Positions 26,724-59,120 of a stretch of 64,000 bases of DNA are shown in pieces. A model generated the notes under the pieces. The model saw only the letters and a program-made list of their open reading frames with translations. It was not told the DNA's origin and did not search any database. Position 1 is the first letter of the stretch. Each line of letters begins with the position of its first letter. Made by a program: the position numbers and the translations under genes. The stretch lies in the IMG/VR virus record IMGVR_UViG_3300025015_000444; one strand, written 5' to 3'. The DNA comes from an uncultured virus (IMG/VR IMGVR_UViG_3300025015_000444). Its lineage: Duplodnaviria; Heunggongvirae; Uroviricota; Caudoviricetes.

Positions 26724-28166
26724 CAGCCAGCAGGACAAGGGGTAGCCTCTAATATCATGAAGGCACGGATAGCCCATGCCCGTCCTGAAACAAACAAAGG
26801 GAAGTTCCTTGCCCTGGATTCCCTTCAGGTTGTCTACCGCGCCTATGTTCAAGAATGCCTTGACTTGATGGTTCAATCCAAGCGTCATCATATCAAGCCG
26901 GCGGATTACCAGAAGTTCTTTTCCAAAGCCAAGAATCTCACGAGCCAGATTCAGAAGAACGCCCGTCAGCACGCTATTCATACTCTGGATTCCTGGAGGA
27001 AGTCCCTTTATCAAGTCACTCTGAAACGCAAGATTCACGAATCTGGCTTTGACGACCATCGGATGATGGAACTCCGATGCGTTGGCAAATTTGGTCTTGT
27101 CAGCGCGGGAAAGTGCGGTAAAGGAGATATTTCCCAAGAGGCTGTTGACCTTTATTGGAGTTGGGTCTGGGATTGCCCGACTCCCAAAGTCTCCGTTGAT
27201 TTCCCAGTGTGGCTTTCAGAAATGACTTGTGCTTTTGGACCGTCCAAGGAATCCAAGTTCTCTGGATGGTGGATTGCCGTCTCTGGATTGATTCGTGGGA
27301 AACGAATCCAAATCCCCTTGAATCCCCACCCGTACTTGACGGACTCGGCCATTCTGGCAAAGTCAGTTCTGATGAGGAAAGACCGTAAGAGACGTTGGAC
27401 TTTCCAGTTTACAGACAAACGGGAAGACGTAGTTCCCATAGGGACAGCGGGCAAAGTTGCTATTGACGTGGGCTTGAACGTCCTGGCAGCCACTTCGGAT
27501 GGTCGTCTTCTAGGTAAGGACTTCAAAATTCCCTTTGACCGGCTTCACAAGAAGGTCAAGACGGTTAGAGCCAACAGACAACGACAAGACCTGAAGGAAG
27601 ATTCCAAGCGATTGATCCGACTTGAAGACCGCTTGACCGGAATGACGAAAACAGCTACGGGCACGGTAGCTAATCAGCTTGTCCGAAGCTATCCAAATCA
27701 TACTTTCGTTGTGGAGAACCTTGACCTTCGTGGATGTCGTGGAAGTAAGAGATTCGCTTACCGTGCCCTTCAACATTCATTAGGTAGGAAGGCTGTCTTG
27801 GAGACAGTCAATCCAGCCTACACAAGTCAGGAATGTCCTTCTTGTGGTTATGTTGCTCGCGGGAATCGCAACGGAACCAGCTTCCGTTGCCTTTCTTGCG
27901 GGAGAATTTCTCATGCTGACGTGGTTGGGGCGATCAATCTGCTCAGACGTTCTGGGGATAAACAGATTGGTTTGAAGGCTTCTCCATGGTTAGTGAGGCC
28001 GATCTTGGAAAAGCGATACCGGAAAGCCCGGGACAGTTCTCCAAGACGGATGGCGAAAGCCACTAGGAGTCCCACCGTTGGACCCGATTCTTACTGTTTG
28101 ATACCGGCAGGCATAGAGTCAAACTCAGGTGTCCTCGCTCTGCGTTGAGGTCATTATGAGGAACGG
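26673..28166 (+). mobile_element. IS607-like tnpB-only element
   Basis: GG at both boundaries (GGTGGTTTCAATCCC ... GAGGAACGG); removing it restores CTA GCC GGC TGA, an immediate stop for the HAD gene; left end shared with 5499-5880. Confidence 0.8.
26757..28148 (+). CDS. tnpB: TnpB RNA-guided endonuclease
   Basis: RuvC AIDVG, VVENL, HADVVGAIN; VNPAYTSQECPSCG..FRCLSCG Zn ribbon. Confidence 0.92.
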   Translation: MKARIAHARPETNKGKFLALDSLQVVYRAYVQECLDLMVQSKRHHIKPADYQKFFSKAKNLTSQIQKNARQHAIHTLDSWRKSLYQVTLKRKIHESGFDDHRMMELRCVGKFGLVSAGKCGKGDISQEAVDLYWSWVWDCPTPKVSVDFPVWLSEMTCAFGPSKESKFSGWWIAVSGLIRGKRIQIPLNPHPYLTDSAILAKSVLMRKDRKRRWTFQFTDKREDVVPIGTAGKVAIDVGLNVLAATSDGRLLGKDFKIPFDRLHKKVKTVRANRQRQDLKEDSKRLIRLEDRLTGMTKTATGTVANQLVRSYPNHTFVVENLDLRGCRGSKRFAYRALQHSLGRKAVLETVNPAYTSQECPSCGYVARGNRNGTSFRCLSCGRISHADVVGAINLLRRSGDKQIGLKASPWLVRPILEKRYRKARDSSPRRMAKATRSPTVGPDSYCLIPAGIESNSGVLALR

Positions 28167-28192: not shown

Positions 28193-28585
28193 ATGACCAT
28201 TCAGGACAAGCTCATTCGGCTCTATCAAGAGATGTACAATCTAACCGAGCCTGAGTGTCGCTTGACATGCCGGTGTCCCCGGTCGTGTTGCTCCCCGGAG
28301 TTCTGTCTGGACACCATACGGTATGCCCAGGAAAGTTGGGGGGTCACTCTTACCCCAACAGACCATCCCAAACTGCCCTTGATGGGGCCAACAGGTTGCA
28401 TCGCAGCCCCACATCTCCGTCCCTGTTGCACCATGCACACATGCGACGTGAATGGGATCGGCTTCAAGAAAGGGGATCTTGATTGGAACGAACGATACTT
28501 TGCCCTTCGGAAAAGGATTGACACCCTGGAGTGGCGACGGACTCCTATTCCGGGGGATACAGCCCTCGCAGAGTCAGGAGTGTAA
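28193..28585 (+). CDS. Cys-rich hypothetical protein
   Basis: C..TC.C..SCC...C, GC...HLRP.C..HTC. Confidence 0.6.
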   Translation: MTIQDKLIRLYQEMYNLTEPECRLTCRCPRSCCSPEFCLDTIRYAQESWGVTLTPTDHPKLPLMGPTGCIAAPHLRPCCTMHTCDVNGIGFKKGDLDWNERYFALRKRIDTLEWRRTPIPGDTALAESGV

Positions 28586-28910
28586 TTAGTTCGACAGACC
28601 GCTTCCGGATATCTGATCGCTCATACGCCTCATACGCATCCGCCAGGGCCTGAGCCTTCCAAACAGCTACTGCCGTTTGCCAGGTCTCTGTGAACTCCGC
28701 TTCCGGCATGACCGCCCAAGACCCTGCGGGGACCACATCGATCACGAACTCCCTATCCTTGTGCCGAAGCACCACAAGGAGTTGCTGGGCCTCTGTTTGC
28801 CCCACGAAGATATCAGCAGCAGGGTAGCCCAATCGGCGCAAGGCTTCATGAATGCAAAGGGCTTCCACAAAAGCCGGGTTGAGTTGCTTGAGGTCAATCA
28901 GTTCTTTCAT
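28545..28910 (-). CDS. hypothetical protein
   Basis: 121-aa protein-like ORF. Confidence 0.55.
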   Translation of the reverse strand: MKELIDLKQLNPAFVEALCIHEALRRLGYPAADIFVGQTEAQQLLVVLRHKDREFVIDVVPAGSWAVMPEAEFTETWQTAVAVWKAQALADAYEAYERSDIRKRSVELITLLTLRGLYPPE

Positions 28911-28993
28911 GTTGGTCCAAGTGGTCCAAGTAGGCTTGGAGTTCCGGGGTCATCTGGTCAAACTGAAATGTGGTTTCCATGTCGCCCTCTAAT

Positions 28994-29263
28994 CTACCCC
29001 AACAGAGGCAAACGCATCGGCCCTTTATCCGTGGCAAAAGCCGTGGCCTGATTGTTCAAGTCCGGCTCTCGCCACACTACCGTGGCTCCCCCCACGGGTA
29101 ACACGTCCAGGAGCTTCTTTTCACCAGGCACTTGATAGACGATCACTGTTCCGTTCTGGGGGCCATACCGAGCAGTCCAGCAATCCATCGCGTGAAGAAG
29201 CTGTGCTGTCCGGCGACCTTCGGGGATGTCAGTACGGGTCACAAAGTAGAGGTGGCTTGTCAT
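28994..29263 (-). CDS. Pth2-like (peptidyl-tRNA hydrolase 2 fold) protein
   Basis: LYFVTRTDI..G...AQLLHA and WREPDL.NQ.TAFA..LPLL; ATGA-coupled to the upstream gene. Confidence 0.7.
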   Translation of the reverse strand: MTSHLYFVTRTDIPEGRRTAQLLHAMDCWTARYGPQNGTVIVYQVPGEKKLLDVLPVGGATVVWREPDLNNQATAFATDKGPMRLPLLG

Positions 29264-29625
29264 GTTGCCACCTGCTCCGGCCATTCCCGGCGGCATCCTT
29301 CGGTAATCAGCCACGCCTCAATGATCGGACGCTCTGTCTCGGCGATCTCAAAAATGAGTTGGATACTTGGGGCAATCCGACACTTCTGTTCGATCTGCCG
29401 GTACGTCCGACCCCGAAGGTACCCGTAGGCCAGAAGCCGTTCCCGTTGTCTGTAGTCGATACTTCTCCGAGCCTGAATTGCTTCCTGATGTAGACGGTCT
29501 CTCTCCGTCCCTTTCTCTGTCAAGCGGATCTTGGCAAAACACTCACGGGCATGGTTCCGCAAGTCACGGGTCTGGATTGCAGTGATCTTGATGTCGTTCT
29601 TGAGGGTCTGAAGCTGAGTATTCAT
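29260..29625 (-). CDS. hypothetical protein (LAYGYLRGRTY..IE motif)
   Basis: AAGGAGG RBS; helical basic protein. Confidence 0.75.
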   Translation of the reverse strand: MNTQLQTLKNDIKITAIQTRDLRNHARECFAKIRLTEKGTERDRLHQEAIQARRSIDYRQRERLLAYGYLRGRTYRQIEQKCRIAPSIQLIFEIAETERPIIEAWLITEGCRREWPEQVAT

Positions 29626-29627
29626 AT

Positions 29628-29757
29628 CGGTCCTCCTTGTTGCTCACGCATGAGCAACAAACGGTGTTGCTGCTAACGGATTGACTCCAGGTGAGCAGCA
29701 ACGCGGAGGACCGCGAGCAACCTACGATTCAGAACTGGGGTATCGCGTTCTCATCAT
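29628..29757 (-). promoter_or_regulatory. translational attenuator-like leader: uORF MMRTRYPSSES-UAG (29757-29722) and anti-SD helix
   Basis: CGGTCCTCC (29713-29705) is the perfect complement of GGAGGACCG (29636-29628), enclosing two hairpins. Confidence 0.7.
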
Positions 29758-29762
29758 CGTCC

Positions 29763-29790
29763 AACATAGCAGGTTGGTTACCGCTGTCAA
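29763..29790 (-). promoter_or_regulatory. sigma70-like promoter TTGACA-N16-TATGTT with extended TG
   Basis: perfect -35; predicted start site at or next to the A of the uORF ATG. Confidence 0.55.
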
Positions 29791-29791
29791 G

Positions 29792-29862
29792 TGCCCCCGG
29801 CAGGAATCGAACCCGCGTCCGGACTTTTAGGGAGTCCTGCTCAGCCCCTGAGCTACGGAGGC
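29792..29862 (-). tRNA. tRNA with CUA anticodon (amber suppressor-like; C33 instead of U33; no encoded CCA)
   Basis: GCCTCCG TA GCTC AGGGGCT GAGC A GGACT CCCTAAA AGTCC GGAC GCGGG TTCGATT CCTGC CGGGGGC A folds into a complete cloverleaf. Confidence 0.85.
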
Positions 29863-29876
29863 TCGTCCCCATACCA

Positions 29877-29904
29877 TCTACCCGATTGGGGTTTTGGCTA
29901 AGCC
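29877..29904 (-). promoter_or_regulatory. phage promoter-like motif GGCTTAG-N14-GGGTAGA upstream of the tRNA
   Basis: consensus match 14 nt before the tRNA 5' end. Confidence 0.7.
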
Positions 29905-30025
29905 TAACGGCAGCCAGGGCGACCAGAACACTGGCGGTAGATGAATTCCCGAAACTGGCGGATCTGGGAAAGTAGGAGGTCCGCGACCCGGATTTTCTAG
30001 AAGACGGGTTTCTGATACGGTCGTT

Positions 30026-30280
30026 TCATGGAACCAGCCATCTAGCCAGGGCTGTTCCCAGGAAAGAGGTGACAATAACCACGGTAGCAATTAGGATGGC
30101 CCACTTGGTTTTCATGTCATTAACCTCATCTTTCAAGGTACGTATGTCTGAATGGTGTTCCTCGCAGGACGTTTTCTCTTGCCAGATTTCGACCCGCACC
30201 AATCGAATATCCAGGGCCGCAAGATCTTTCTCGATAACGACGATCAGTTCTTTCTCCCGTTCTGTCATGTCTGCTATCAT
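30026..30280 (-). CDS. coiled-coil protein with C-terminal TM helix (holin/hemolysin-like architecture)
   Basis: heptad N-terminus and WAILIATVVIVTSFLGTAL. Confidence 0.55.
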   Translation of the reverse strand: MIADMTEREKELIVVIEKDLAALDIRLVRVEIWQEKTSCEEHHSDIRTLKDEVNDMKTKWAILIATVVIVTSFLGTALARWLVP

Positions 30281-30320
30281 CCATCCGTTGCAACAGCATT
30301 TAGCACCCTCAACGTATCGC

Positions 30321-31328
30321 TCAGTTCATGCAATAGGCAGTCTGCTTGGTCACGTAGTTGATGATGGAGAACAGTTCCCGAGCCATTGCCTGGCCTTCAA
30401 GATCAGGGAGAAATCTGGGTGATCCCTGTGCTCGACGAAGAGGAACCCCAACGAGTTTCAGGAGCTTCTGGGCCATTGTAGAGTCCGCATGAGCCACGTC
30501 CCGAAGAACATCCTCGGCACTCTGAAGAGTCTCGACGATGATTTGGGAGTTACCCGTAGCTTTCACCTCGGCATGAGCAGCCCGAAGATAATCCACCAGG
30601 CGTTTGAGAGCCGGAATGCATTGGGTTACTGATTGGGAACCCCATCCGAAACCGGTATCCCGTGTGAGACCTACCGGATATTGACCCATCGGGAGCATCT
30701 TGCCGTCCATGGGAGAAACATGGGCGACCCCGAAAGCATCCACGTAGCCATGATCCGTTCGGGTCTGATAATGCTTTGCCAGTTCTCGCTTGGCCTGGGA
30801 CAGGCCAGCAAACCAGAATCTCGGATCCCTGTCGAATTTACCGCCGTCGATGCGACCAGTCATGCCCGAATCGGTGAGAGCACCCCAACGACGAATGACT
30901 CGGAAACCATTGTCTTCTTCGACGATGAGACCCTCATAGAACTTGGAGTTGTTAGCTCCGGCGTCGATCTTGTAGACCATGAAGGCCATGTCCAGACGAA
31001 CAAGCTCCTTGGTGAGTCCCATCGCTTTCAAGATCGCAAAATGAGCCAGCTTGCGAACGGTAGCAACTTTTTCTGGCAAGGTCATGGAAGCCCAACGAGA
31101 GGCTGTCACCACGGCAGGATGTCGTGCATGTACCGCCTGAAAGGCTTCAGTCTCTGCGACAAGATTGAGCCGAGCCTGGTGAACCACCTGAGCCAGATGT
31201 GGCTTGAGGGCCGGGTTCTGACTGGCCAATCGTACAGTTGCCCGAAGAAGGTCACGTTCCTGTTTGGCCCCGCTTCGATTCCGGATGGTGTCGAGCTCTG
31301 GCCAGAGAGTGGTTGATTGGGTAGGCAT
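30321..31328 (-). CDS. WGR-domain-containing protein
   Basis: KIDAGANNSKFY..VIRRWGA..K...GY; AGGAGG RBS. Confidence 0.7.
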   Translation of the reverse strand: MPTQSTTLWPELDTIRNRSGAKQERDLLRATVRLASQNPALKPHLAQVVHQARLNLVAETEAFQAVHARHPAVVTASRWASMTLPEKVATVRKLAHFAILKAMGLTKELVRLDMAFMVYKIDAGANNSKFYEGLIVEEDNGFRVIRRWGALTDSGMTGRIDGGKFDRDPRFWFAGLSQAKRELAKHYQTRTDHGYVDAFGVAHVSPMDGKMLPMGQYPVGLTRDTGFGWGSQSVTQCIPALKRLVDYLRAAHAEVKATGNSQIIVETLQSAEDVLRDVAHADSTMAQKLLKLVGVPLRRAQGSPRFLPDLEGQAMARELFSIINYVTKQTAYCMN

Positions 31329-55069: not shown

Positions 55070-55377
55070 CCCTGTTTCCCAACCTGTTTGAAGAACCGAC
55101 AGGAGACATCTCCCATAACCCCAGCCTGCAAAATCAGATTCGCGGGCCATCTCCCGAGAGGATTCGGATTATAGCCGTTGTCTTCTTCACCGGCATAGTA
55201 GCCCCAGGATCGAAACTCACGCACATCGGAGAGTAAGCCTCCCGACCCCCCATGTAGGTGTTCTATGGTGGCGAGACGACATTGATCAATGTTCAAACCA
55301 CCCACTCCGTGCTTCAGGAGGTTGATCGTCAACGAGCCTTCTGAACAGGGTTTCCTGGCCAGGGTTAGGGTGATCAT
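55066..55377 (-). CDS. MTase-middle cassette D
   Basis: MITLTLARKP..GGLNID..GRWPANLIL..RFFKQV. Confidence 0.75.
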   Translation of the reverse strand: MITLTLARKPCSEGSLTINLLKHGVGGLNIDQCRLATIEHLHGGSGGLLSDVREFRSWGYYAGEEDNGYNPNPLGRWPANLILQAGVMGDVSCRFFKQVGKQG

Positions 55378-55997
55378 GGTTCTCCGGATCCCCCAACCTG
55401 CTTGAAAAACCGAGAGGCTCCCCCAACGTCATAATGCGAATTACTTCTCCTGTCTTTACCCCCAAATCCAAACATCCCGCCCGATTGCGCTCCTCTTTGA
55501 CTCGGCCGTCCTGTTGCAGGTAGGGTACCACTTAGTTCGTCCAAACCAGACACAGGACAGCCCGATTGACAATCCCACGTATCCACGGTTTCCATTCCGT
55601 CGGTATTCGAATAACCCCGTCGAGTGGCGTCAGTAGGACGGAATCGCCAATTGGTCTTGTCTTGCCGACCATCATCCCCACTAGGTCGAGTATCCGTGCG
55701 ATTACCCCGCACCTGTTGGATTCCCCTCTTTCGGCATCCTGGAAGGTGGCACAGAATCAAGTTCGCGGGCCAGCGTTCCGTTGCTATTGGTATAGGTGGG
55801 GTTCCTTGTGGATAGGGGGCGGGTCGATAACCCAGAAGAGCTAACTGAGCATTGTAGCGATCCATTCCCGAAGGGAGTTTGCTGGCAGCAGTCCCAACCC
55901 GACTCTCGTCGATGTTGATCCCCCCAGTTCCGTGCATCAAGACTGTTTGAGCAACAGAACCGATCAAGGGCTTCCTGGCTAGAGTCAAGACAATCAC
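55374..55997 (-). CDS. MTase-middle cassette C
   Basis: same conserved blocks plus CHLPGC..WDC..GCPV. Confidence 0.8.
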   Translation of the reverse strand: MIVLTLARKPLIGSVAQTVLMHGTGGINIDESRVGTAASKLPSGMDRYNAQLALLGYRPAPYPQGTPPIPIATERWPANLILCHLPGCRKRGIQQVRGNRTDTRPSGDDGRQDKTNWRFRPTDATRRGYSNTDGMETVDTWDCQSGCPVSGLDELSGTLPATGRPSQRGAQSGGMFGFGGKDRRSNSHYDVGGASRFFKQVGGSGEP

Positions 55998-56596
55998 GGT
56001 AGCCGACCCCCAACTTGTTTGAAGAACCGGGCAGCTCCTCCTGAGTCTCCCCGCAACCATTCTGATCGTACTGGTTGTCTGTTGAACGGTTGAATGACCC
56101 AACTAGGGTTTTTCTCCGTGGTCTTGGCCCCACCGCCACTCATCCCAGGACAATCCCCACTCTGTTCATCCAAGGCAGCCACAGGGCACTCTAATTGGCA
56201 GTCCCAGAGATCTACTTGTTCGACTGGTGTCGTTGTCCCCTCATAGGGGTGTCCTGCCCCGCCCCCGAAGGGCTTGGCACCATCAGACCAACGATTGATC
56301 TGATACCCGGGAACCGTGGTAGTCCCTGTCTTTCGGCAGCCGGGAAGATGGCACAGAATCAGGTTTGCGGGCCAACGCCCCATCGGGTTTGATTTCACAT
56401 TAGTAGCCAAAACAGATCCGTCTGAGGGTCTACGTGTTCCGTAACCGCCGCCCCGTATGTCTGTTTGCGTCCCCCATTTCCAAGCTGAACCCAAAATACG
56501 GGTGCCGTCGATATTAATTCCTCCAGTTCCGTGCTCCAAGGCGTTGACAGCCACGGACCTAATCAGAGGCTTCCTGGCTAGGGTCAAAACGATCAC
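55994..56596 (-). CDS. MTase-middle cassette B
   Basis: same conserved blocks. Confidence 0.8.
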   Translation of the reverse strand: MIVLTLARKPLIRSVAVNALEHGTGGINIDGTRILGSAWKWGTQTDIRGGGYGTRRPSDGSVLATNVKSNPMGRWPANLILCHLPGCRKTGTTTVPGYQINRWSDGAKPFGGGAGHPYEGTTTPVEQVDLWDCQLECPVAALDEQSGDCPGMSGGGAKTTEKNPSWVIQPFNRQPVRSEWLRGDSGGAARFFKQVGGRLP

Positions 56597-56647
56597 CCCT
56601 GTCTCCCAACCTGTTTTCGGATGCTCTCCTGGTTCATGGCATATCTC

Positions 56648-57679
56648 CTATTCGGGTTTCCTACCAACTACAAACGGTTCCCACGCAGGCTTGAGCGCCG
56701 TTCCCCATCCCTCGAACTGTTTGGCCTCGGGAGTGGCCGCTTTGGTTACGGGAATCGTAACAGCAACCTGTTTGGCCCCCGTTCCGTAAGCCCCCACACC
56801 TTTACCCCCCGGGTCGTCTGTAGTACGGATCTCGTCTGCCTCGTTGACAATGTCGTTGAGGTTTTCTCCCCCAACACCCTGCTGATAGCCAATGACCTCT
56901 CGCTGGTCACTTGCACCGAGGTGGCGGTCTATCGCTTTTGCCACATTTAGTGATTTGGGGAAACCTGAACCGTAGCACCATGCCGTTAGCATGAGATTTT
57001 CGAACCCTACAGATTCCATTGCGGCAGCGAGCCTGTGAAATGTGCGCGTGGCCGAAAAAGCCTTGATCACACCCCCCGGCTTCAACACTCGAAAGACCTC
57101 TATCAGCCAAGCCGTGTGCCAAATCTGCATGGACTCAGCCTGTTGCAAACGGACGTTTGGGAAGGACGGGTCTTCACACTGACATCGGGTAAATCCTTCA
57201 CGGTCATTCCCCCGCTGTGTCCCCCCACAGTTCTCACAGATGGGGTTCGGGGAACCGTTGAAAGAAGGGAGGTTCGTATTCTGGAATCTGTCGCTTCCAC
57301 CTGAAGTGAAACTCGCCCCACCTGTCGCCACACGGGGTTTGCCCAAAGGCTTCCAGTGGTCATGTGGCTTCTCACAGGTACATTTCTTAGCCCCCCGTAG
57401 ACGACCCCCACAGACGGCACACGTTGGATTTGCCGTGCCAAACTGAGCGTTGCTGGAGAACGAGGGCCAGTCTGTCTTGCGATCCCCAATGCCGGGTTTC
57501 GAGAAACCCCCTGACATTAACCATGCTTGTGGGATCTCTAACCTATCCCACTCTTTTCCCATAAATTCAAGGCCATATGGGGGATCACAAACAACTGCCC
57601 CAATTGATTGATCTTCCATCCCCCTGAGAACCTCGAAAGAGTCTCCCAACCGAAGCTGAAGAAGCTGTTGCGTCATCAC
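56648..57679 (-). CDS. N4/N6 DNA methyltransferase, catalytic (DPPY) half
   Basis: GDS, VCDPPYGL.FMGK.WD, RVLKPGG, YGSGFPKS, GWGTALKPAWEP; no FxGxG motif. Confidence 0.88.
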   Translation of the reverse strand: MMTQQLLQLRLGDSFEVLRGMEDQSIGAVVCDPPYGLEFMGKEWDRLEIPQAWLMSGGFSKPGIGDRKTDWPSFSSNAQFGTANPTCAVCGGRLRGAKKCTCEKPHDHWKPLGKPRVATGGASFTSGGSDRFQNTNLPSFNGSPNPICENCGGTQRGNDREGFTRCQCEDPSFPNVRLQQAESMQIWHTAWLIEVFRVLKPGGVIKAFSATRTFHRLAAAMESVGFENLMLTAWCYGSGFPKSLNVAKAIDRHLGASDQREVIGYQQGVGGENLNDIVNEADEIRTTDDPGGKGVGAYGTGAKQVAVTIPVTKAATPEAKQFEGWGTALKPAWEPFVVGRKPE

Positions 57680-58491
57680 ATCTCCTCCCCGAACCCGAAG
57701 AAATTGTCGAAGCTAATCACCCCCGCATCTTCCTTTGGCCGTTCAGGAGCATCGGACTGAATCTCGACCCCTTGATTGGCGGGAGTGGTGAGTTTCCAAT
57801 CCCAATGCCGAACCCTGGCATCTGCAATAACCAAGTAGTCAGGTTCCCGCTCTATCCCGATGAAAGCATGCCCCGTCTTGAGACATGCAATCCCAGTTGA
57901 ACCGCTACCCATGAAAGGATCCAGCACTGGACCTTGATCCGTCGGCACATCTCGGAGTAGCTTTTCCATGATTGCCATTGGCTTACATGTTGGGTGAAAG
58001 TTGTGGACTTGTCCTGCTGTGCGCCCCGCCCCTGCCCTCGGGGATTCGAGCCCTGCCGTATCCTCTTCTCGGTCTACGGCTTCTGCCCCTGACCTGGCTG
58101 GAAGATGCGCGCACCCGGCTTCCCGTTCCGCCCGTGCTGCCTTAGGTACGTAATGAAACCGCCCGGGTTCGGTAACGAACAGAATGGAGTCCCGTATCTC
58201 AAACCCGGCATCCTCAATGGTACATGCTCCCGTATGACCCGTAGGCTCTTCGTCGGGAGCAATCAAGATCAAGTGTGCTCCTGGCTTCAAGACACGAAGA
58301 AACTCCACGGACTGTTCTTCCGTGGGGGTTCCTCGTATGATGAGTCCTGTGACGGACTCTTTCTCCCATCCCGCTACAGTCTGCATCGTGGAATCATTGA
58401 TCTCTGTCAGGTAGACCGCCTTGACATAAGGCTCTGGCGGGGAAATCAAGGTAATCAGGTAACTGATCAGATCGTCAGGCATCGTTGTCAT
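57676..58491 (-). CDS. N4/N6 DNA methyltransferase, SAM-binding half
   Basis: HPTCKP, VLDPFMGSGSTG, FIGIE; no DPPY. Confidence 0.88.
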   Translation of the reverse strand: MTTMPDDLISYLITLISPPEPYVKAVYLTEINDSTMQTVAGWEKESVTGLIIRGTPTEEQSVEFLRVLKPGAHLILIAPDEEPTGHTGACTIEDAGFEIRDSILFVTEPGRFHYVPKAARAEREAGCAHLPARSGAEAVDREEDTAGLESPRAGAGRTAGQVHNFHPTCKPMAIMEKLLRDVPTDQGPVLDPFMGSGSTGIACLKTGHAFIGIEREPDYLVIADARVRHWDWKLTTPANQGVEIQSDAPERPKEDAGVISFDNFFGFGEEM

Positions 58492-59120
58492 TTTGGTTGC
58501 TCCTGAACTTGCTTGAAGAAGCGGGAAGCCCCACCCGCTTCTCCGAATCCTGGATCCACAGCCGTGTGCTCCGTAGTAAAGCCTGTTGGCCCCAAACCAG
58601 TGAAAGCCCCCTTGGCGTTCCCTATCCGGCCCCCCGTGGATACGGATACCCCACTCTGTTGATCAAGGTCTCGAACGGGGCACCCTGGTTGACAATCCCA
58701 GGCATCTACGGTTTCCAAGCCTGCTGTATCAGCAAAGCCCCCACCCAAATAAAGGTCTGTTCGTCCTGTCCCATATAGGTTCGCAGCCCCGAAACCTCCT
58801 GGGGCGGTTCCGTGATTACCTGTCCTGACTTTTCGTTCTCCAACGCACCGGCAACCCGGCAAATGACACAAGATCAGGTTCGCGGGCCAACGCCCAGCTT
58901 GTTTATACAGGTCTTGCTGAGAACCATCGGCATTGTTTTTACCCGTTCCTGGAGAATAATCGGAAGAGGCAAGATGCTTATAGCCTTGGGTTACGCGAGG
59001 TTCTCCTTTTTTCAAAGAAACTCGGCACCCATCAATGTTGATCCCCCCAGCCCCATGTTTCAACACGTTGACCGCAACAGAACCAATCAAGGGTTTTCTA
59101 GCTAGGGTCAGAACGATCAC
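58488..59120 (-). CDS. MTase-middle cassette A
   Basis: MIVLTLARKPLIGSVA..GGINIDGCRV..GRWPANLILCHLPGC..GGASRFFKQV. Confidence 0.8.
   Translation of the reverse strand: MIVLTLARKPLIGSVAVNVLKHGAGGINIDGCRVSLKKGEPRVTQGYKHLASSDYSPGTGKNNADGSQQDLYKQAGRWPANLILCHLPGCRCVGERKVRTGNHGTAPGGFGAANLYGTGRTDLYLGGGFADTAGLETVDAWDCQPGCPVRDLDQQSGVSVSTGGRIGNAKGAFTGLGPTGFTTEHTAVDPGFGEAGGASRFFKQVQEQPK

Follow-up and report, generated by a model that had tools for sequence, protein, structure and literature searches.

In a 64,000-nucleotide (nt) stretch of DNA from an uncultured tailed phage (Caudoviricetes; IMG/VR record IMGVR_UViG_3300025015_000444), referred to below as the window, a gene for a suppressor transfer RNA (tRNA) whose anticodon, CUA, is cognate to the stop codon UAG is followed by a short leader and two overlapping genes, one encoding a 121-amino-acid protein that we call X and the other an 89-amino-acid protein resembling the peptidyl-tRNA hydrolase Pth2, here named Pth2L. 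We propose, with a probability of about 75%, that this leader acts as a switch at the level of translation, allowing X and the Pth2-like protein to be made only when nonsense suppression works. Comparing the sequences of related loci, we found that the anatomy of the leader is conserved and that the stop codon within it matches the anticodon of the neighboring tRNA.

Architecture of the leader and its predicted operation

The tRNA, the leader and the two genes are arranged in the following order, in window coordinates:

29791-29862, minus strand: suppressor tRNA, anticodon CUA (ARAGORN; Rfam RF00005, 53.6 bits, gathering score 29)
29763-29790, minus strand: sigma-70-type promoter, with TTGACA (29790-29785), a 16-nt spacer and a TG-extended TATGTT (29768-29763)
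29722-29757, minus strand: upstream open reading frame (uORF) encoding MMRTRYPSSES (ATGATG...TCG TAG), with the gating stop UAG at 29724-29722
29644-29721, minus strand: read-through extension VARGPPRCCSPGVNPLAATPFVAHA, starting V-A-R-G-P-P and terminating at the TGA at 29646-29644
29704-29715, minus strand: Arg-Gly-Pro-Pro (RGPP) codons CGC GGT CCT CCG, the predicted ribosome arrest site, which contain the anti-Shine-Dalgarno (anti-SD) sequence
29705-29713, minus strand: anti-SD CGGTCCTCC, beginning 8 nt past the TAG and the exact complement of GGAGGACCG
29637-29702, minus strand: two nested perfect hairpins of 9 bp (29702-29694/29674-29666) and 10 bp (29660-29651/29646-29637), between the anti-SD and the Shine-Dalgarno (SD) sequence
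29628-29636, minus strand: SD GGAGGACCG of gene X, preceding the ATG at 29625 and predicted to be sequestered by the anti-SD
29260-29625, minus strand: gene X, 121 amino acids, all-helical according to its alignment and an AlphaFold2 model (predicted local distance difference test score, pLDDT, 91.9)
28994-29263, minus strand: Pth2L gene, 89 amino acids, ending in TAG, its start overlapping the X stop

A first-pass annotation, made from the letters of the window alone, had listed these elements, the two nested hairpins aside, and each listed element was found at the place it had named on the minus strand, with the exception of a phage promoter motif that it had put upstream of the tRNA. A promoter scan of 28400-30400 gave no such site; the leader promoter, which matches 10 of 12 consensus positions and abuts the 3' end of the tRNA, was the sole promoter-like site on the minus strand of that interval. 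Since the expected transcript start coincides with or adjoins the uORF AUG, the transcript is presumably a leaderless mRNA. RGPP lies past the UAG and in frame with the uORF, the R-(A/G)-P-P arrangement of small arrest ORFs. The predicted minimum free energy (MFE) structure of the leader, at -49.2 kcal/mol, includes all three helices, and the anti-SD:SD duplex was predicted at -20.0 kcal/mol. The promoter/terminator scan detected no terminator-like site within the leader, and Rfam, the tRNA aside, returned only sub-threshold matches near it (osmY, 22.8 bits, and Plastid-ycf2, 23.4 bits).

From this arrangement we infer read-through, stalling and unmasking of the SD, as follows. In the off state, transcription would begin at or next to the uORF AUG and, without an active suppressor tRNA, the ribosome would terminate at the UAG; the anti-SD, carried by the Gly-Pro-Pro codons, would then remain paired to the SD of X, and X and the coupled Pth2L would stay off. 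In the on state, the CUA tRNA would decode the UAG, V-A-R-G-P-P would be translated and the ribosome would arrest on RGPP, and the SD, ~70 nt downstream, would be freed because the arrested ribosome would keep the anti-SD in its mRNA channel. X would then be translated, with Pth2L following by way of the ATGA through which X (29625-29260) overlaps the 89-amino-acid gene (29263-28994), an overlap of stop and start that implies translational coupling. The arrest would thereby serve as an amplifier, in that even an occasional read-through would leave the leader open for a long time.

Stop codon, arrest motif and suppressor tRNA in related loci

Eleven viral and 61 metagenomic loci encoding relatives were fetched, which after deduplication and together with the window gave 62 loci (272 kb; L numbers below denote these loci). 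We searched them for a short ATG-initiated uORF with one stop and, beyond it, an in-frame RGPP. The gene strand yielded 28 elements of this kind and the opposite strand one, compared with a mean of 1.28 and a maximum of 4 in 50 shuffles. In 26 of the 28 gene-strand elements an X-family gene started 61-90 nt after RGPP, and the complete design is present in 26 of the 62 loci. The element at 6816 of L013 and that of L035 were excluded as chance hits, because neither had an X gene downstream and their spacing was atypical.

Among the 26 elements, the uORF ranged from 2 to 15 codons and the spacer between stop and RGPP from 1 to 10 codons, always a multiple of three nucleotides, while exactly one stop occupied the same place in every leader (26/26). 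The codon preceding this stop was ACG in 11 of the 26 and the base following it was G in 20. A gating uORF was present in the RGPP frame in all 26, by selection, and in each of the +1 and +2 frames in only 2. Each of the first 13 leaders to be inspected carried, upstream of the uORF, a TTGAC(A/T/G) -35 element with a TAnnnT -10 element ~17 nt downstream of it, and continued with the short uORF, one stop, a spacer, the in-frame RGPP and an SD 61-90 nt on. By these counts, the design of the leader is conserved beyond chance. The first-pass annotation had proposed homologous loci as a check, and in the relatives the suppressor tRNA, the stop-ended uORF with R(G/A)PP beyond its stop and the pairing of the anti-SD are indeed retained.

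A suppressor tRNA was found in the fetched flank of 37 of the 62 loci (25 of the 34 loci that are 4 kb or longer, and 12 of the other 28). Of the 106 tRNA calls in the loci, 40 were suppressors, all but one of them on the gene strand (39 of 40), and in 27 loci the suppressor was the sole tRNA. Their anticodons were mostly CUA, with UUA in L020, L023, L029 and L057 and UCA in L010 and L054/55. In all 24 loci that showed both a gate and a suppressor, the gating stop was the cognate of the neighboring anticodon: TAG with CUA in 19 loci (L004 being counted via its longer copy L028), TAA with UUA in the four loci just named, and TGA with UCA in L010. On the Pth2L tree the UUA label requires four changes, at least three of them forced by well-supported branches, and the nearest neighbor of the window is L023, a UUA/TAA locus; the match between stop and anticodon is therefore not one inherited state, since the UUA type arose at least three times. 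An apparent TGA gate in L054/L055, which carry a UCA tRNA, was rejected, as it falls within the TTGACA hexamer before an N-terminally shortened Pth2L match.

The first-pass annotation had itself raised the doubt that Gly-Pro-Pro might be merely what an anti-SD spells. This doubt did not survive the comparison. Across the 26 elements RGPP varies synonymously, using six Arg codons, four Gly codons and four codons for each Pro, and the Arg codon is always present though it lies outside the core anti-SD. AT-rich loci spell RGPP with codons that are not anti-SD, for example CGTGGCCCACCA and AGAGGACCACCA, and there the partner of the SD or start codon is found just 3' of RGPP, within reach of a stalled ribosome. 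RAPP replaces RGPP in L057 and RSPP replaces it in L006, and in L038, L065 and L008, which have no arrest motif, the read-through frame extends up to or over the anti-SD. RGPP varies synonymously and is kept where its codons cannot form an anti-SD, and selection acts on it as a peptide, beyond its anti-SD role. In the available part of a study of RAPP-like motifs (PMC12992588), RGPP gave the most robust arrest, in several N-terminal contexts and refractory to elongation factor P; that part makes no mention of phages, stop codons or suppressors.

The predicted RNA folds are consistent with masking of the X start. Structure was assessed by single-sequence folds, duplex energies and a count of the named structure. 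In most of the 26 folded leaders, the RGPP region or the stretch immediately 3' of it was predicted to pair with the SD or start codon of X; among the MFE structures of the 21 close-clade leaders, 19 showed such pairing and two (L027 and L032) did not. The duplexes between the two arms averaged -15.7 kcal/mol for cognate pairs versus -12.6 kcal/mol for non-cognate ones, and the named helix was paired in 73% of alignment cells versus 37-51% when it was slid.

Other RNA genes were observed around the suppressors. Three loci additionally contain a transfer-messenger RNA (tmRNA) gene, which lies close downstream of the genes for the CUA tRNA and Pth2L (L007:3925-4300, L048:4866-5231 and L065:2407-2774) and so brings together three elements related to ribosome rescue or termination. 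Directly downstream of Pth2L in two further loci are arrays of 84-86-nt tRNA-like genes (L022:4376-4634 and L024:2244-2645), in which the anticodon arm is a long stem with a UUCG-type loop or shows a 2- or 4-base 'anticodon'; ARAGORN labeled them Glu(ttc), Ala(agc/ggc) or '???', and possibly their products are tRNA-like RNAs that do not decode.

Gene X, the Pth2-like protein and a second gate

Every X gene with upstream sequence had a stop-gated leader (31/31; four more genes were cut by contig ends), with RGPP in 26 leaders, RAPP in one, RSPP in one, and plain read-through to or over the anti-SD in three. X is gated even away from Pth2L, in L005, L044, L047 and L049, and judging by this arrangement it is the gene under direct control of the leader. 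In loci with X ahead of Pth2L, the genes adjoin or overlap each other, and a frequent C-terminus of X, '-EAA', encodes the SD and the ATGA of Pth2L. The predicted fold of X includes an N-terminal helical hairpin, and the family, a diverse one, shares the conserved motif R..LAYGYLRGRxYxxIE. The family had no match in Pfam, PHROGs or NCBIfam, with no Pfam family matched by more than one of 29 members, and Foldseek returned nothing for the fold at E <= 0.001. A similarity of X to the release-factor domain PCRF is a lead only: it came from an ESM Atlas entry with a template modeling (TM) score of 0.54, a low-confidence model under the naming bar of the structure search, and was not recovered with our own model.

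Pth2L was modeled from 23 homologues at a pLDDT of 88.5, and the best 13 chains listed by Foldseek were all Pth2-family entries, with a probability of 1.00 and TM scores of 0.56-0.66. For the window protein itself, Pfam gave nothing at E <= 0.1 and PHROGs a single weak match, to an unannotated family, and a sequence search of solved structures with the Pth2L profile gave no meaningful match. The same profile retrieved 379 cluster representatives at E <= 0.001; among 52 relatives sampled of the 150 listed, 37 match PTH2 at E <= 0.05, 15 of them above its 23-bit cut-off, and hhalign connected the window clade with those relatives at 99.3% (E 9.5e-21). The label 'Pth2-like' given at first pass is supported by the fold match and by this profile bridge to Pfam PTH2 (PF01981), and the 89-amino-acid protein is predicted by its model to have the Pth2 alpha/beta fold, with a putative hydrolase activity. 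Compared with archaeal and eukaryotic Pth2 (PF01981), Pth2L is ~25 residues shorter and lacks a Pfam match of its own. The polar residues invariant in the family are R10, D12, H24, E66, D68 and T74; the Pth2L alignment shows no conservation of the lysine regarded as catalytic in Pth2.

In a sister clade with 26-44% identity, the Pth2L frame is itself interrupted. The gene starts with an SD, an ATG and a few codons, and then shows an in-frame TAG, at codons 2-7 as read from the gene starts. This early TAG is clear in 18 of 36 sister-clade loci and ambiguous in 5 more, and the gated genes have no further in-frame stop in the gene body. Among records of cultured phages, a query with Pth2L had 219 matches, 206 belonging to Mycobacterium phages, and we inspected the gene starts of Alice, ScoobyDoobyDoo, XacN1 and RaK2. 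In mycobacteriophage Alice, Pth2L is preceded by TTGACA, a 17-nt spacer, TACCGT and 6 nt and begins ATG TAG GTG, with an annotated 'tRNA-suppressor (cta)' 250 nt downstream; in the cultured mycobacteriophage ScoobyDoobyDoo the gene begins GTG TAG GTG, and a CUA tRNA lies 180 nt downstream. Xanthomonas phage XacN1 shows ATG AAG TAG in frame, 7 codons ahead of the annotated start of ORF364, which is an HD-like domain fused to Pth2L, and has no X homologue at E <= 0.01. In the available part of their paper, the authors of XacN1 describe CUA suppressor tRNAs whose target genes were not identifiable (PMC5852040). As read from these gene starts, the second gate appears to be independent of the arrest leader, and a suppression-dependent ON switch would have been reached by three routes: arrest (the window clade), plain read-through (three loci) and a direct in-frame stop (the sister clade).

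The extra domain of ORF364, a weak sub-threshold match to HDIG, is N-terminal there (L073:1967-2806) and C-terminal in another protein, P0105, and in both it contains the stretch '...H(S/A)NA(N/A)MFGG..SDSFK.K'. In the window, two further open reading frames follow Pth2L, for neither of which was a family found, and judging by their spacing alone they may belong to the same operon:

28894-28980, minus strand: ORF of 28 amino acids
28545-28910, minus strand: second ORF of 121 amino acids

Genetic code of the phages, rival explanations and known systems

We considered whether UAG might be a sense codon throughout these phages. The window, at 55% G+C, is densely coding under the standard code and contains phage replication genes (DNA polymerase, helicases, primase and methyltransferases) as well as MazG, thymidylate and thymidine kinases and an endolysin-like gene. 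Its own X protein is on record in contigs of up to 331 kb, and contigs of the public runs that contain the stretch reach 332 kb, sizes that point to a jumbo phage. These runs carry the label groundwater metagenome, three of the four may be where this DNA came from, and no RNA run is listed among them. TAG terminates 23 of the 79 called window genes, a complete thymidine kinase among them, and no domain-bearing window gene requires TAG read-through. In the complete 315-kb relative G002, TAG terminates 61 of 348 called genes, and treating it as sense adds no more to coding coverage than do the TGA and TAA controls; a crude local recoding test on the short loci gave no usable signal. The claim of the first-pass annotation that this is not whole-genome recoding thus agrees with both the TAG-ended genes of the window and the complete relative. 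G002 has eight tRNAs, one of which is a CUA tRNA adjoining the module, and a single TAG-gated RGPP element in all, at its X-Pth2L locus, just as the window contains no stop-gated R(G/A/S)PP element other than this leader. Since neither the window nor G002 is recoded and neither has another gated element, the module itself is the only designed suppressor target that we could find in these phages.

The in-frame extension past the stop of window genes has a median of 26 codons for TAG versus 15 for TGA and 17 for TAA, and four TAG-ended minus-strand genes run on in frame for 165-468 codons into the next ORF:

39022-39669/37615-38979, minus strand: TAG-joined ORF pair
47878-48384/46660-47877, minus strand: TAG-joined ORF pair
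56648-57679/55994-56596, minus strand: TAG-joined ORF pair
42135-42512/41637-42125, minus strand: TAG-joined ORF pair

When TAG was read through as Gln in these four candidate fusions, no Pfam domain spanned any junction, and as programmed fusions they are candidates only. The module has the following neighbors:

26757-28148, plus strand: TnpB/Cas12f-like gene (Cas12f1-like TNB domain, E 3.7e-14; OrfB_IS605 under its cut-off), just past the module on the opposite strand
28193-28585, plus strand: Cys-rich protein of ~130 amino acids, on the opposite strand downstream of the module
30321-31328, minus strand: 335-amino-acid protein containing a WGR domain (25.2 bits against a cut-off of 22), upstream of the tRNA

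The Cys-rich protein recurs at L001:3499-3888 on the minus strand, with a similar N-terminus (…L(I/Y)(R/Q)LY.E…). Farther away, four or five DNA-methyltransferase genes or fragments stand in a run at 55374-59120 on the minus strand, within which a second copy of the segment 'ARKPL...GTGG(I/L)NIDG' opens a separate ORF.

Several explanations other than a switch driven by suppression were weighed. The first-pass annotation had allowed for slow termination as well as read-through at the UAG, which would make the leader a sensor of release factor 1: a ribosome waiting at the stop would cover the anti-SD and open the SD with no read-through at all. In the window, where the UAG is only 8 nt before the anti-SD, a paused ribosome could reach the first bases of the helix, but with a spacer of 1-10 codons the stop is too distant in most loci for the waiting ribosome to cover the anti-SD, so that this branch is unsupported; a spacer that is always a multiple of three, and an in-frame RGPP, RAPP or RSPP that varies synonymously, would moreover be left unexplained, and we regard the proposal as improbable. 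A shade less probable still is an ordinary RAPP-type arrest leader of a recoded phage, in which TAG would be sense and the signal would be, for instance, export or a metabolite. Such a leader would fit with the RAPP/RGPP uORFs found upstream of bacterial genes of many functions (PMC12992588, available part) and with the existence of stop-recoded phages (Borges preprint, 10.1101/2021.08.26.457843, available part). It is at odds with a single stop that stands at the same place in 26/26 leaders and whose identity tracks the anticodon, with the use of TAG as a terminator in the window (23/79) and in G002 (61/348, without a gain over controls), and with the read-through peptides themselves, which are short and variable and by inspection have no hydrophobic segment that could serve as a signal or membrane segment of the Sec/YidC type.

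The leader might instead act on transcription or mRNA stability, through access of Rho or protection from RNases, with the uORF merely loading ribosomes. Its strong structure (-49.2 kcal/mol) would suit such a role, and engineered UAG-gated leader peptides can control transcription (PMC6412442, available part); yet the leader has no terminator-like site, and the conserved pairing partner is the SD or start codon of X, which indicates control of initiation, and we give this alternative little credence. Hardly credible, finally, is coincidence, by which Gly-Pro-Pro would only spell the anti-SD and the uORF would be meaningless. A CCUCC does necessarily read as Pro or as Leu/Ser in some frame, but this cannot account for 28 elements versus one on the opposite strand and 1.28 in shuffles, for an Arg codon that is always there, for RGPP kept with codons that are not anti-SD, or for a stop that is the anticodon's cognate in every locus tested.

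Against a suppression-dependent switch itself weigh the following observations. The CUA tRNA of the window, a class I tRNA of 71 nt up to the discriminator base A73 with no encoded CCA, has C33 in place of the canonical U33 (loop C-C-C-U-A-A-A, 29828-29834; C32-C33), whereas U33 is present in 39/39 other suppressor tRNAs of the related loci. The sequence, C33 included, is identical in contigs from three runs of one study; C33 puts the decoding efficiency of this tRNA in question, and it may be a weak decoder because of it. Seven loci that bear the element have no suppressor tRNA in the fetched flank (L001, L002, L011, L025, L026, L027 and L072), and in L010 the UCA tRNA is on the opposite strand. 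Some Pth2L relatives lie ungated within ordinary tRNA arrays, as in Klebsiella phage RaK2, whose relative stands amid ordinary tRNAs with neither suppressor nor gate. The arrest motif is known from other peptide contexts, and the nascent chain at the stall would here be only ~14-25 residues. As for the RNA, RNAalifold on a MAFFT alignment of 21 leaders returned only 2 pairs, because the variable inner hairpins fail to align, and the covariation score was matched in 107 of 500 shuffles, a control confounded by relatedness, and is not significant; the helix is mostly invariant, with one two-sided change, a pair formed by base three of the Arg codon and base one of the start codon, which is CG in five sequences and UA in five. 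Of the anti-SD covariation that the first-pass annotation had put forward for checking, the pairing therefore stood, in folds and duplex energies, and the covariation signal was weak, so that the case is carried by conservation and energetics.

If the leader is a suppression-dependent switch, both architectures would make Pth2L and X conditional on suppression, and the function of these proteins would therefore concern the consequence or the control of suppression. The first-pass annotation had suggested that the tRNA and the two proteins may form a module for UAG termination and rescue, or for counter-defence. Short 'minigene' ORFs of phage lambda poison cells in which Pth is limiting, which makes peptidyl-tRNA recycling a natural idea: Pth2L could recycle the peptidyl-tRNAs produced by read-through, arrest or drop-off, as a form of damage control. 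We hold this tentatively, as somewhat less probable than its negation. Rather doubtful is a role of Pth2L, X or both in feedback on either the pool of charged suppressor or release-factor competition, as a homeostat or commitment switch, in which the feedback on the charged suppressor tRNA would be negative, or positive feedback would act, for example, through release-factor competition. At close to even odds, though short of them, we place the broader proposal of a self-contained module that measures suppression with two sensors, the RGPP leader before X and the early stop in Pth2L, and whose outputs feed back on translation. Such feedback, whether through the pool of charged suppressor, through competition with release factors or through the recycling of peptidyl-tRNA, would set the level of read-through, or commit to one, in a host with the standard code.

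The closest published systems are the RAPP/RGPP arrest peptides, the autoregulation of prfB, the code-change module of stop-recoded phages and engineered UAG-gated leaders. SecM is a further arrest peptide, of the RAGP type. In prfB, which encodes release factor 2, an early in-frame UGA is escaped by a +1 frameshift, and the gene thereby senses its own product. The leader resembles prfB in that an early stop weighs termination against an alternative decoding and so sets its own output, and differs from it in that the escape would be made by a suppressor tRNA, either directly, as at the sister-clade TAG of Pth2L, or via an arrest leader. With the RAPP/RGPP arrest peptides ApdA, ApdP and ApcA it shares a small upstream ORF with R-(A/G)-P-P; there, the proposed stall places a Pro codon in the P site and another in the A site and would so open a helix that hides the SD of the following gene (PMC12992588, available part). 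Unlike in those peptides, the motif here lies beyond a stop and would be reached only by nonsense suppression, the input would be the state of the genetic code and not export, no signal or membrane segment is present, and the carrier is a phage with its own suppressor tRNA.

The code-change module combines a suppressor tRNA with an aminoacyl-tRNA synthetase plus a release factor, and suppression was proposed to time expression (10.1101/2021.08.26.457843, available part). Like that module, the locus described here clusters a phage suppressor tRNA with translation-related genes; unlike it, family profile scans found no aminoacyl-tRNA synthetase or release-factor family among the ORFs neighboring the window tRNA, and neither the window nor G002 is recoded. 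The available text of the preprint has no occurrence of 'hydrolase', 'arrest' or 'sensor' and mentions neither Pth nor arrest peptides. In engineered leaders, read-through of an inserted UAG decides downstream expression (PMC6412442, available part); those are synthetic and mostly transcriptional, whereas the present leader is natural and would be translational and coupled to arrest. Literature searches, with subscription-only papers and bioRxiv supplements outside their reach, yielded no description of a stop-gated arrest leader and no account in which a suppressor tRNA gates a Pth2-like gene or is linked to one.

Arrest-peptide leaders are known that respond to export, antibiotics and metabolites. 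Stop read-through would be a new input for them, and the leader a natural sensor of the genetic code, built of parts that synthetic biologists have combined by hand; at ~130 nt it is compact and could serve as a reporter of suppressor-tRNA activity. It would also give the suppressor tRNAs of cultured standard-code phages a concrete target in cis, and a widespread Pth2-like family tied to suppression would be a marker family. If the broader proposal of a self-contained, suppression-measuring module is true, it would explain why standard-code jumbo phages and cluster C mycobacteriophages carry 'orphan' suppressor tRNAs, and would represent the first natural regulatory element with the decoding state of a stop codon as its input.

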